From Candidatus Micrarchaeota archaeon (lineage in GTDB: Archaea; B1Sed10-29): 19,292 nucleotides of DNA. The position numbers were made by a program. Of this stretch, positions 12,001 through 15,000 are shown in pieces. Within the stretch, counting starts at the first letter, position 1; the number at the start of each line of letters is the position of its first letter. The DNA lies in NCBI GenBank assembly GCA_964388265.1, contig CAYLXZ010000013.1:1-19292 (forward strand), given 5' to 3'.

Positions 12001-15000
12001 GATCTAAATCGAGGAGCATTATGGAGAAATTCAAAGAGTTTAAAAGCCTTTTTGAGAGATATGACGTGGATGAGGCTGTTATTTACGCTCACGCGGATCA
12101 TGATGGCCAAGCTTCCTCTGCAGCTTTAAACTATATCTTTGGAGATATCGAGGTAGATTTCAGCCAGTCTTTTAGGCCAAAAAAGATTCCGAAAGCCTTT
12201 AATAAGAAACTTTTTGTTATATGTGATCTTCTTTTCTCGGAAAAACAGATTGAAATTCTGCTTGATAGAGGTTTAAAGGTCGTTAACTTAGATCACCATG
12301 ATGTAAGAGAAATTAATGATGATAACTACCACTGTTTTAACCCGAAAAGGATCTACGAAGAGGAGTTCATATCTACCTCTGGATTGATCTGGAAGTTTTT
12401 TTCTCCTTCTGATATTGACTGGTTGTTGGCCATGGGCTCGGCAGGTGATATAGCGGTTGAAGGAGTCCCGCAGTTGCTCGAAAGGATTAGTTTAGAGTAT
12501 CCTGAGCTAATCAAGGATACTGATCTTCGTTCAATCTATGATTCAAAGATATACGAGTTAGCAAGAGTTGTTTTAACTTCGTTTGAAAGGCCTAGAGAAG
12601 GATTTAAACTGATTCAAAGATCTATAGAGGAAGATTATGGAGTCTTATATGGTTCTAAGCTATATGATGAGTATTTAGAGAAACAGGAAGATATAAAAAG
12701 CTTCCTTAACAGCCCTTATCCTCAAAGAGATTCTGAGGAATACATTTTAATAGATTCAACGGGTGAAGAGAACCCTGGGAGCTATGGAGGTCATCTAAAT
12801 CTAGAAAACGGTGATGAAAGAGTCTACGTGGAGTACAGTGATGGTAGACTTTACTTCAGGAACTTCTTTGGAGATAAGGATATCTGTGAATTAGCTGAGT
12901 TATTCGGTGGAGGTGGAGCTCATAGCAGAGCAGGTGGAGCTTACACTAACAAGTCCTTCAAGGTAGTTGAAAAAGAGATAAGGGATCATTTCAATTACCA
13001 GCAAACCTCTTTAGGAGATTTCTAGCAATAATTGTTTTAGGCACTACATTTCTATTTTGACTTTCTTGCTGGATTCTAGTTTTTGGATAGTAACCTTTTT
13101 CTGAAAAAGGTTACGCGGGGACTGGGATTCGAACCCAGGAGGCCAGAGGCCACTGGTTTAGCAAACCAGCGCACTACCACTATGCGACCCCCGCATTTCA
13201 ATTAGTAATTACATTTACGGCTTCTTCTAGGCTGTTCACACAGTCTATTTTTATTCCTTCTGGTTTTTTTATGTCTTTGCACTGTCCACCAGGCACGATC
13301 ACTCCATTTATATCTTCGGTTTTGTTAGCTATCTCTACCTTTTTCTGCAGCATGGCTACTGGCCCCACATCTCCTTTTTCGTGGAGCACTCCTGTGATTG
13401 CTACATCTTTCTTTGGTTCTTTATCCATTATCAGTGAGTATAGGCCTATTCCTATGGCTAGTGATCCGCTTGAACCTTGTAGTGATCCTTCTGCTGTTGA
13501 GTCTACCCATATTAGGCTTTTGTTCAGGCTTTTCTGTGTTAGTGTTTCCACGGCTTGTTTTATGTTTCTGATGGATGTTTGGAAGCTTGCTCCGTAGGTG
13601 TTCTCGCTTATTTCTACGAATACTTCTCCATTTCCTTGTGCTAGTGTGACTGTTAGGTTCACTGTTTCTCCTGTTCCTTCGTTTGGGTGGACGCCTATTC
13701 CTTTTAGGGTTATGGATTCTCCTTTTTCAGGTATCTCCGGTGACTGGTTTATGTATACTGGGTTCTCGACTTCCTTTTCTTTCGTCACGTATTCTTTTTC
13801 TCTTTTGACTACGTTTTCTCTTTCTCTGAGGATTGCTCCGGAGAAGAAAGCTATCTCCAGCATTACCACTATTACCAGGATCTTCCACCATTCCATCTTT
13901 ATATTCATTTTCTCTTCCTCTCTTGTTTTTTAGTGGTGAAGCTGCCCAGAGGTCGCTGGCGCTCCCGTGCTCCGGCTACCCTCCGTTCTCCTCGTCCCTG
14001 GGATCCTCTAGACATCCCAGGTATATGTTAGGGCTGCTCCGGTCAGGGCCTGACCCGGTTCCATATACCTAGAATCCTAGAGGGCAGGGAGTCTGCAGAG
14101 AGCAGAGGACCTTTGCACGAAAGGCATCCAACTTCCTCTGGACTCGCCCCCCCGTGAGTGGATTTGGGGTTACAGGAGACCACCGGTCCCCCGGCTGAAC
14201 TTCACCGTATTATTTATTCTTATCTTTATAATAAAATACCCTGCTTTGCGGTAATTTTTCACAAAAAACCATTGTAATTATTTTACAGGAGTGTTTGAGG
14301 CCGTGGGGTCACGGAAACATTTTTCGAGTGTTTTTTGTTTCTCTTTTTGTGGAACATAAGTAATAAAAATGAGTTTAACCCCAATTAATATGAGGTGACG
14401 TAACAGTGGAAACAATGGTAGATGAAGCAGTTCAGAAAGGTGAAGAACGTGAAGAAAAGGAAGCAGAATTGATAGAAGGACCTAACATACAAGTGATAGG
14501 AACAGGAGGAGCAGGAAATAATACAGTAAATCGACTAGCAAGAATAGGTATAGAAGGAGCAGAAATGATAGCTATTAATTCAGATAAACAGCATCTAGGT
14601 TTAGTTCACGACTCAGTAAAGAAAATACTGGTAGGACAGAGCGTTACAAATGGACTAGGCGCAGGTGGAGCTCCTAAAGTAGGAGCCAAGTGTGCTGAAG
14701 TGTCTAGAGGAACTCTGTCTGATGCAATGGAAGGAGCCGACATGGTTTTCCTAACAGCTGGAATGGGTGGTGGAACCGGAACTGGAACCGCTCCAATCTT
14801 AGCTGACATCGCTAAAGAACAAGGAGCGATAGTCATAGCAATGGTTACCTATCCATTCAAGCTAGAGAAAGCCCGGCTCGAAAAAGCAGACGAAGGAATC
14901 AAGAAACTGAGAAAAGTAGCGGACACAGTAATTATAATAGATAACAACAGGCTAGTTGAACTAGTTCCAAACCTGCCAATGGAACAAGCGTTCTCAGTAG

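Follow-up and report, generated by a model that had tools for sequence, protein, structure and literature searches.

The window, a 19,292-nucleotide stretch of a Candidatus Micrarchaeota genome from the phylum B1Sed10-29, encodes an SRP RNA without helix 6, and this layout occurs together with the absence of SRP19 in every DPANN-type lineage that we examined. Archaeal SRPs exist naturally in three states: with helix 6 and SRP19, with helix 6 only (Hadarchaeota) and with neither (DPANN, including Altiarchaeota). We favour, with a probability of roughly 0.6, the reading that the third state is a working, reduced archaeal particle of one RNA and one protein, in which SRP19 was lost first and helix 6 was excised once on the DPANN stem. 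A preliminary description of this DNA had presented the deletion as a trait of the phylum; 29 of 29 phylum RNAs do lack helix 6, but that scope is too narrow.

To judge from its sequence, the RNA gene in the window (Table 1) is a genuine archaeal SRP RNA gene. The archaeal model RF01857 matches 14206-13935 with 124.1 bits (gathering threshold 96.5) and places no base against its 40 helix-6 positions (cmscan), in agreement with the preliminary description, which reported a 272-nt RNA with helices 5 and 8 and the Alu domain but without helix 6. Helix 1 and an Alu domain with loop 3–loop 4 pairing and a UGUNR motif are present, as an archaeal SRP RNA requires. The strand is predicted to fold into one long hairpin plus the Alu domain (z = -5.08; 0 of 200 shuffles equal). 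Across the 29 phylum sequences, the Alu loop–loop pairing comprises five pairs, with 95.9% of cells paired and two-sided changes at three pairs; the UGUNR motif reads UGUAA in the window genome (G000) and is eroded in several relatives. The model of the long bacterial SRP RNA, RF01854, also scores above threshold (88.5 bits; gathering threshold 60), but the archaeal model exceeds it by 36 bits despite the 40-position gap. The earlier label 'bacterial-type' therefore suits the layout (RF01854 score, unbranched stem) and not the descent (RF01857 score, archaeal FtsY), the latter judged by comparison of models rather than by a tree with bacterial RNAs.

Table 1. Features of the SRP RNA locus in the window
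Feature	Position	Strand	Details
tRNA-Ser(GCT)	13113..13195	-	Neighbour only
Membrane-anchored Lon C-terminal (S16-like) protease	13198..13908	-	Directly downstream of the RNA; weak Lon matches below cut-off
SRP RNA gene	13935..14206	-	272 nt; 61% G+C versus 41% in the window; ends paired by helix 1
Continuous 14-bp stem, 3' strand	14014..14027	-	From fold and covariation
Helix 8 SRP54-binding site (predicted)	14035..14061	-	Asymmetric loop GAACC 14057-14061; symmetric loop CAGG 14049-14052; AGCA 14035-14038
Helix 8 apical loop	14041..14046	-	UGAC 14042-14045 within a C.C mismatch, effectively CUGACC
Continuous 14-bp stem, 5' strand (helix 5f into 8a)	14062..14075	-	Helix 6 would exit between 14068 and 14067
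Alu domain, helices 2-4	14145..14195	-	UGUAA 14170-14174; GGUGG 14180-14184 pairs with CCACU 14157-14161, loop to loop
TATA-like box (putative promoter)	14225..14236	-	TTTTATTATAAA; 19-30 nt upstream of the RNA 5' end
ftsZ	14406..15491	+	TIGR00065, 402 bits; divergent from the RNA gene

The RNA was found in 29 of the 31 genomes of the phylum at 266-278 nt, as previously reported. The helix-6 deletion, earlier demonstrated by alignment in six RNAs and deduced from length in the others, is now covered by alignment in all 29: none has a helix 6 with a GNAR loop, which is present in 23 of 24 inspected long control RNAs. Between the 5e anchor and CAGG lie 34-35 nt in every phylum RNA versus 73-76 nt in most helix-6-bearing controls, and the stems that flank the gap match archaeal RNAs column for column on both sides. 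Across the former junction, the phylum RNAs show two-sided changes at 14 of 14 stem pairs; the covariation score was reached by none of 500 shuffles, and slid controls drop from 0.66 to at most 0.19. The helix 8 motif for SRP54 binding (AAYC...SAGR...AGCA) is retained in 29 of 29.

No SRP19 scored over cut-off in the 31 phylum genomes with either PF01922, which found the protein in three of four control archaea and missed that of Sulfolobus, or NF001973, whose weak matches in the phylum all lie within frames of at least 316 amino acids. The preliminary description had claimed this loss alongside retention of SRP54 and FtsY, and those two genes are present, next to each other on contig C4 of the window genome, which also encodes SecY; a search with SRP54 for related loci returned one locus, and the structures nearest to its FtsY are archaeal (E 7e-87 versus 1e-52). 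A caveat raised at the time was that a very divergent SRP19 might have been missed. A profile built from 30 archaeal SRP19 proteins, run with filters off, gave a best E value of only 0.38 over 11,315 frames of the window genome (82% complete), and an SRP19 alignment (A2) matched none of five near-complete phylum genomes and the control G237 at 3e-15; neither revealed an SRP19. Weak matches were rejected in G004 and G010, on contig C17 of the window genome (inside a 358-amino-acid DHH-type ORF), in G274 (an alternative frame of a PCNA-like gene) and in G390 (an alternative frame that contains two stops). In the window genome, the position next to rps8e is taken by other genes.

The other DPANN lineages examined, a gap in the earlier work, show the same double absence. 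In a sample of Nanoarchaeota, SRP19 was found in 0 of 201 genomes and the RNA in 141 of 151; none of the 139 full-length RNAs has room for helix 6, 136 being 263-278 nt long and the other three longer within helix 8. Altiarchaeota (a set named, like that of Hadarchaeota, through uS7 homologues) have the RNA in 54 of 61 genomes, none with helix 6: 53 are 267-284 nt and one, of 309 nt, carries a hairpin on the 3' side. The single SRP19 profile match in those 61 genomes is a stop-ridden alternative frame. In a sample of 90 archaeal genomes outside the phylum, PF01922 found SRP19 in 47; of the 88 RNAs, 46 of the 52 long ones are accompanied by the protein and none of the 36 short ones is. Long RNAs in the SRP19-less, DPANN-type genomes G073, G046, G118, G281 and G415 were considered as helix-6 carriers and dismissed, their extra length not being helix 6.

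Hadarchaeota combine the missing protein (0 of 66 genomes over cut-off) with an RNA that keeps helix 6. SRP RNAs of 292-346 nt were recovered from 55 of the 66 genomes, 54 of them at full length despite the absence of SRP19, with GNAR loops kept and helix 6 seen in all 21 inspected. Two genomes that are not part of the Hadarchaeota set, G232 and G320, likewise keep helix 6 and lack SRP19, so loss of the protein can recur. Helix 6 is reduced to a 4-bp stub in G322 and has a non-GNAR loop in G320; on these sequences its decay appears to follow the loss of SRP19.

A published survey is in line with these counts: Supplementary Data 25 of PMC13473441 lists SRP19 at 0% in all 12 DPANN groups and Hadarchaeota and at 91-100% elsewhere, and under that study's root the protein has a presence probability of 1 at the base of Archaea and of 0.3 in the ancestor of DPANN. 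We found no paper on an archaeal SRP without helix 6 and SRP19; the absence of SRP19 stands uncommented in one supplement. The text supplements of PMC7414124 that were accessible contain no SRP19 row, and the accessible part of the supplement of PMC12892359 gives only a family size.

The particle shares with the canonical archaeal SRP (RF01857, SRP19 and SRP54; Zwieb and Bhuiyan 2010, PMC2905702) helix 1, a UGUNR Alu domain, the loop 3–loop 4 pairing, helix 5 with 5e, the SRP54 site in helix 8, and archaeal SRP54 and FtsY. It differs in lacking helix 6 and SRP19, in length (about 272 versus about 312 nt) and in the URRY loop of 12 of the 29 phylum RNAs. That review considers an adenosine clamp likely for every archaeal and eukaryotic SRP RNA and reports SRP19 from all archaeal subgroups (PMC2905702); with no helix 6, the phylum RNAs can have no such clamp. 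The long bacterial SRP RNA of Bacillus, Clostridium and Thermotoga (RF01854) resembles them in its Alu domain, unbranched helix 5–helix 8, single core protein, paired ends and occurrence of URRC and URRU loops (PMC4091067), whereas the sequence signature, promoter type and proteins of the phylum are archaeal. The srp19 deletion strain of Haloferax volcanii (PMC2905702, PMC6098224) is an archaeal SRP that functions without SRP19, but it is engineered and still has helix 6, and so resembles the natural state of Hadarchaeota and not that of DPANN. Thermoproteus also has a non-canonical SRP RNA gene, permuted at the tip of helix 8 and yielding a circular RNA, but unlike the phylum it has retained both helix 6 and the protein SRP19 (Plagens et al. 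2015, PMC4731332); Thermoproteales were discarded as a precedent for the absence of both because both are present (PMC4731332, PMC2905702). Plastid SRP RNAs share non-GNRA apical loops, with no strict link between loop type and Lys399 status, but are short, of bacterial origin and have loops of 1-11 nt, whereas phylum loops stay GNRA or URRY (PMC4091067).

The apical loop of helix 8 varies within the phylum: GGAA in 14 RNAs, GGGA in three, UGAC in eight, UGGC in three and UGAU in one. These counts reproduce the 12 non-GNRA loops reported earlier, with the correction that the expected closing pair is C.C in the window RNA (and U.C in G011), where UGAC takes the place of the GRRA loop of canonical archaeal SRP. 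The preliminary description attributed the change to loss of the contact between helices 6 and 8. That explanation fails: 17 of 29 RNAs keep GNRA, and UGAC coexists with helix 6 and SRP19 in G253, G276, G297 and G318. As URRC and URRU are also known bacterial alternatives to GNRA (PMC4091067), UGAC does not stem from helix-6 loss. UNAC loops mimic GNRA (PMC5311481), a statement that does not extend to UGGC, UGAU or the C.C-closed loop. All 29 phylum FtsY proteins have a lysine at the position of Escherichia coli FtsY K399 (Lys226 in the window genome; register counted from an E. coli-type alignment), so loop type and lysine show no correlation in the phylum. Pyrococcus and Sulfolobus FtsY have this lysine too and mammals can do without it (PMC6781444); it is thus no proof of a bacterial-type tether.

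We propose that the RNA is probably transcribed from the TATA-like promoter, back to back with ftsZ2. Alignment and covariation show that it retains an Alu domain that is complete and protein-free, together with helix 5 and the site for SRP54. The helix-6 branch of about 40 nt appears from the alignment to have been removed cleanly, with the distance between the 5e motif and the SRP54 site kept, so that helix 5 continues straight into helix 8. SRP54 is expected to bind helix 8 with no assembly factor, as in Bacillus; archaeal SRP54 can bind the RNA without SRP19, and deletion of srp19 is tolerated (PMC2905702). Given the genes present, SRP54 would then recognize signal peptides, meet FtsY and hand over to SecY. 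Most speculatively, the bare helix-8 loop, whether GNRA or its UNAC/URRC mimic, may serve as a tether for FtsY via Lys226 as in bacteria. Historically, SRP19 would have been lost before the single excision of helix 6 on the DPANN stem, Altiarchaeota being counted among DPANN, with Hadarchaeota representing the intermediate state. The likeness to the Bacillus RNA was most likely reached by loss. A single loss of SRP19, in an ancestor shared by DPANN and Hadarchaeota, is less likely than not; DPANN are placed as sister of TACK and Asgard, not of Hadarchaeota (PMC13473441), in which case the two losses would be independent.

A single excision has to be set against repeated convergent loss, in which SRP19 became dispensable and several small-genome lineages dropped helix 6 separately, the fixed stem length making the junctions alike. 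Because that constraint would render independent deletions similar, the uniform junction is no proof of one event. Outside DPANN, Hadarchaeota, G232 and G320 have no SRP19 either, helix 6 has shrunk in G322, and short RNAs were not united in a FastTree phylogeny calculated without the helix-6 columns (81 RNAs, 273 columns, with two groups each represented by 12 RNAs drawn at random and intron-bearing, partial and insert-bearing RNAs excluded); those of Altiarchaeota and one other were placed among RNAs that carry helix 6, with low support, and deep branches were unresolved. We nevertheless consider convergence unlikely. There is no exception among 29 + 139 + 54 + 36 RNAs (a few genomes belong to more than one set), Altiarchaeota whose genomes reach 2.5 Mb also lack helix 6, so small genome size is not the cause, and the full-length RNAs of Hadarchaeota indicate that deletion does not follow automatically from SRP19 loss. 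Alternatively, DPANN may have kept an ancestral particle in which only helices 5 and 8 accompany the Alu domain, like that of Bacillus and Thermotoga, with helix 6 and then SRP19 arising later and Hadarchaeota as an intermediate of gain. The layouts are the same, helix 6 is packed against helix 8 also in the absence of SRP19 (PMC2905702) and could therefore predate it, and the best tree from outgroup rooting still has a DPANN root, which that rooting is unable to reject (PMC13473441). This history is improbable: reconciliation and non-stationary models place the root in or at Euryarchaeota, with SRP19 in the archaeal ancestor (PMC13473441), and G232, G320 and G322 look like loss and decay in progress.

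We give little credence to a stabilizer of the S domain, be it a strongly diverged SRP19 or some small protein unrelated to it, that escaped the profiles. Small proteins diverge quickly, Pfam missed one of four controls, the window genome is incomplete and a 74-amino-acid ORF adjoins the RNA in G011 (E 0.13). However, helix 6 and its GNAR loop, the very site to which SRP19 binds, no longer exist, three profiles gave nothing, every inspected weak match was spurious, the rps8e slot is otherwise occupied, and the G011 ORF was rejected as SRP19, having no relatives in other loci or the window genome and no NCBIfam match. A hidden SRP19 is more plausible in Hadarchaeota, whose RNAs keep GNAR loops. 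Horizontal replacement by a long bacterial SRP RNA, to which the above-threshold RF01854 match and URRC loops typical of some bacteria (PMC4091067) might point, we regard as highly improbable, given the higher archaeal score, the column-for-column fit of the flanking stems, the archaeal affinity of FtsY and the UGAC loops of archaea with helix 6.

Reviews describe helix 6 and SRP19 as common to all archaea and eukaryotes and as a mark that separates them from bacteria; a large share of archaeal diversity lacks both. The absence of the protein only in Hadarchaeota and of both in DPANN points to a two-step loss with a bearing on the archaeal tree: as a discrete character that does not depend on alignment, the states can inform two disputed questions, whether DPANN are monophyletic with Altiarchaeota and which lineages are nearest to them. 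If SRP19 was lost once, this would be an independent character for a clade of DPANN and Stygia that has been proposed on the basis of uS7 insertions (bioRxiv 10.64898/2026.06.17.729505); if the absence is primitive, the RNA would be a structural fossil and the archaeal root would lie at DPANN. The three states also offer a natural series for studying the role of helix 6 and a possible bacterial tetraloop–FtsY tether in archaeal SRP. For annotation, the Rfam threshold is close to or above the scores of short DPANN SRP RNAs; 9 of the 141 Nanoarchaeota RNAs lie near or below it.

The RNA gene and ftsZ share an A+T-rich gap of 199 nt, and similar TATA-like boxes lie at the same place in the flanks of relatives (compared by eye, with no chance control). 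An ftsZ paralogue on contig C5 adjoins genes read as secE, spt5 and rpl11, on which basis we take the ftsZ in the window to be FtsZ2, following the usual convention. The earlier statement that the RNA usually lies head-to-head with ftsZ2 is upheld: 24 of 29 phylum loci have ftsZ no more than 1.5 kb away, head-to-head in 22 and in tandem downstream in two, and one of the five other loci is cut by a contig end. This link is local to the phylum, with ftsZ beside the SRP RNA in 0 of 33 Nanoarchaeota loci. About 15 of the 29 loci have a relative of the Lon-like protease close to the RNA (a blastp cluster from 15 genomes).

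The SRP RNA gene of the window matches the archaeal Rfam model RF01857, yet leaves all 40 helix-6 positions of the model empty; in canonical archaea SRP19 binds this arm. Its 272-nt strand folds into helix 1, the Alu domain and a single long hairpin tipped by helix 8 (z = -5.08). We found the RNA in 29 of the 31 genomes of the phylum B1Sed10-29, at 266-278 nt; the two genomes without it are 77% and 61% complete. The alignment of all 29 RNAs is nearly gapless from the helix-5 motif 5e to the SRP54 site, and the stem across the former three-way junction has two-sided changes in 14 of 14 pairs. 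The covariation score of this stem (0.66) was reached by none of 500 shuffles, with slid partners scoring at most 0.19, although deriving the structure from the very alignment on which it was tested biases the result in its favour. The Alu loop-loop pairing is formed in 95.9% of cells. On the 5' strand, 5e and the SRP54 site lie 33-35 nt apart in nearly all measured short RNAs, against 73-76 nt where helix 6 is present; the distance from the AGCA loop to the 3' end is about 100 nt with or without it. The empty model positions, the full alignment and the covarying junction stem confirm the anatomy proposed in the preliminary description, in which helix 6 is gone. The gene is under selection for structure and no decayed copy, and the particle is a real variant of a known one.

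SRP19 had been described as missing from the phylum, and each of our searches agrees: neither the Pfam nor the NCBIfam model gave a match over cut-off in any of the 31 genomes, a profile built from 30 sequences of other archaea and searched unfiltered against every frame of the window's genome reached a best E of 0.38, and a 19-sequence alignment search found no match in five of five near-complete relatives (control genome positive). Weak matches in the phylum were spurious wherever inspected. A 74-aa ORF downstream of one SRP RNA (SRP19 E = 0.13) has no relatives at other loci and no NCBIfam match. That a hidden protein accounts for these results seems to us improbable. SRP54 and FtsY are kept, as reported: their genes adjoin in the window's genome, 30 of the 31 genomes have an FtsY-family match, and SecY is encoded. 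The head-to-head arrangement with ftsZ2 also recurs, with ftsZ adjacent at 24 of 29 loci and divergent at 22. ftsY and srp54 are neighbours in most phylum genomes. In all 26 SRP54 sequences read, DSAGRD replaces DTAGR-H/L; FtsY, unlike its SRP54, keeps DTAGR.

The trait was presented as special to one phylum, which proved too narrow, as the absence of helix 6 and SRP19 extends to Nanoarchaeota, Altiarchaeota and other short-RNA genomes. Among Nanoarchaeota, which we take to be the phylum of the sampled Pacearchaeota genome, SRP19 was found in none of the 201 genomes of the set. SRP RNA occurs in 141 of 151; 136 of 139 full-length matches measure 263-278 nt, and the three longer ones have an insert inside helix 8 and no helix 6. 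In the Altiarchaeota set, named via uS7 homologues, 54 of 61 genomes have the RNA, 53 at 267-284 nt and one at 309 nt that lacks helix 6 but has a 3'-strand hairpin. The sole SRP19 profile match among the 61 lies in an alternative reading frame interrupted by stops. Ninety genomes sampled from other archaeal phyla yielded 88 RNAs, which fall into two size classes: 36 RNAs measure 262-286 nt and 52 measure 306-384 nt. SRP19 accompanies 46 of the 52 long RNAs and none of the 36 short ones; kin are not independent, and the counts do not amount to a statistical test. Helix 6 is in none of the 32 short RNAs read and in 23 of the 24 long ones read, the exception (G281) having a 3'-side insert. From genome size, uS7 motifs in two cases and a table in PMC13473441, we infer DPANN membership for most of the short-RNA genomes. 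Two RNAs without helix 6 (G281, G415) have a new 3'-strand hairpin of about 35 nt near the old junction, and one genome (G290) holds two equal-scoring SRP RNA copies, a duplication or an assembly artefact.

Intermediate states occur in Hadarchaeota, to which two sampled genomes (G270, G291) were assigned from the names of their uS7 homologues (7 of the 8 named matches). SRP19 gave no match over cut-off in 66 Hadarchaeota genomes and none in three by alignment search; SRP RNA is present in 55 of the 66 (292-346 nt), and all 21 RNAs read have helix 6, with GNAR loops except in G322. Helix 6 is likewise kept, with SRP19 undetected, in G232 and G320 (100% and 96% complete; 90 contigs each). Helix 6 thus outlasts SRP19, and SRP19 was never seen without helix 6. 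Two RNAs with SRP19 undetected have an altered arm, a 4-bp stub in G322 (L163) and a lost GNAR loop in G320 (L212), possibly stages of helix-6 decay. Supplementary Data 25 of PMC13473441 lists SRP19 (arCOG01217_01) in 0% of Hadarchaeota and of each of 12 DPANN groups, against 91-100% in the other groups; with the root placed in Euryarchaeota, its presence probability is 1 at the root and 0.3 in the ancestor of DPANN; the term 'SRP' is absent from the available main text.

The simplest reading, to which we give a probability of roughly 0.6, is that SRP19 was lost and helix 6 was then excised once, on the DPANN stem. Counting against a single excision, SRP19 loss recurs and the junction may be constrained; our SRP RNA tree does not group the short RNAs, and its deep branches are unresolved. 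Repeated loss of helix 6 is unlikely in our estimate, and an arm that was primitively absent somewhat more so, while transfer of the SRP RNA from bacteria is very improbable. The lack of SRP19 common to DPANN and Hadarchaeota fits a clade that a 2026 preprint, whose available text leaves SRP unmentioned, based on uS7 insertions (bioRxiv 10.64898/2026.06.17.729505), and the tree of PMC13473441, with DPANN sister to TACK and Asgard, is at odds with a loss shared by the two. An earlier account has SRP19 in all archaeal subgroups, coexisting with helix 6, and the adenosine clamp likely in all archaeal SRP RNAs (PMC2905702). In the open-licence literature we found no paper that describes a natural archaeal SRP lacking both helix 6 and SRP19, although a passing remark elsewhere in print is possible; a search pairing SRP19 with archaeal lineage names gave no SRP19 among the 40 matches listed of 569.

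The helix-8 loop varies within the phylum (GGAA 14, UGAC 8, GGGA 3, UGGC 3, UGAU 1); in the window RNA it is closed by a C.C pair. UGAC also caps helix 8 alongside helix 6 and SRP19 in four genomes (L147 G253, L213 G276, L154 G297, L214 G318). In bacteria URRC is a widespread alternative and URRU a rarer one (PMC4091067), and loops of the UNAC type imitate the backbone of GNRA (PMC5311481). Together with the 17 of 29 phylum RNAs that retain GNRA, this indicates a loop that, across many lineages, alternates between two folds of a single kind, and the suggestion that non-GNRA loops result from helix-6 loss does not hold.

Transcription would start from a TATA-like box. Elongation is slowed by a protein-free Alu domain in Bacillus, and by analogy the domain would act likewise here. 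SRP54 would bind the RNA directly, since archaeal SRP RNA can bind SRP54 in the absence of SRP19 and the srp19 gene can be deleted in Haloferax (PMC2905702, PMC6098224). The sequences themselves show the intact Alu domain, the length-conserved stem, the SRP54 motif and the genes for SRP54, FtsY and SecY. The exposed helix-8 loop may tether FtsY in the bacterial manner. The tether lysine (E. coli FtsY Lys399 position) is present in 29 of 29 phylum FtsY sequences, but it is shared with Pyrococcus and Sulfolobus, and its mammalian equivalent is dispensable (PMC6781444). A nanohaloarchaeal study predicted an expressed non-coding RNA as SRP RNA and, in its available text, names FtsY and Ffh but not SRP19 (PMC10266531).

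Three of the 139 Nanoarchaeota RNAs carry candidate tRNA-type introns of 37-46 nt within the helix-8 CAGG, and each intron sits in a bulge-helix-bulge whose central helix has 4 bp. In-silico removal restores the motif and leaves RNAs of 269-274 nt, and all three genomes encode a splicing endonuclease. Six of the 55 Hadarchaeota RNAs, and that of G248, have a candidate intron at a second position, directly after the helix-8 GGAA loop; splicing in silico restored the motif in the four of these seven RNAs tried. No paper on SRP RNA introns was found among the three matches listed.

Features by extracted locus (L), contig (C) or window position, with the genome compared (G; G000, window genome)
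Feature	Position	Genome	Strand	Remark
SRP RNA	window 14206-13935	G000	minus	RF01857 match, 124.1 bits
CAGG intron	L068:3023-3331 (whole RNA)	G073	minus	candidate
CAGG intron	L069:3030-3349 (whole RNA)	G046	minus	candidate
CAGG intron	L070:3057-3370 (whole RNA)	G118	plus	candidate
Post-GGAA intron	L227	G331		candidate
Post-GGAA intron	L228	G323		candidate
Post-GGAA intron	L229	G367		candidate
Post-GGAA intron	L233	G380		candidate
Post-GGAA intron	L234	G325		candidate
Post-GGAA intron	L235	G366		candidate
Post-GGAA intron	L152	G248		candidate
RNA with 3'-strand hairpin	L120:240-549	G281	minus	
RNA with 3'-strand hairpin	L231:199-507	G415	plus	
SRP RNA copy	C8:44609-44882	G290		
SRP RNA copy	C9:6236-6509	G290		
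74-aa ORF	L034:1492-1716	G011	minus	rejected as SRP19
SRP54 with DSAGRD	L036:1219-2535; L180-L209			26 sequences read
Glycine-rich protein	window 5-2014	G000	plus	669 aa
Salvage-like ORFs	window 3337-6104	G000	plus	from motifs
5S rRNA	window 6802-6916	G000	plus	
Gene pair	window 8753-9982	G000	minus	no NCBIfam match
Gene pair	window 11072-11865	G000	minus	

Elsewhere in the window, two gene pairs resemble what we take to be PIN-type toxin-antitoxin modules, and further ORFs resemble ribose-1,5-bisphosphate isomerase and AMP phosphorylase, presumably for nucleoside salvage. The 5S rRNA gene stands alone. The glycine-rich protein, with two long near-identical repeats and a C-terminal membrane anchor, is likely a surface protein.
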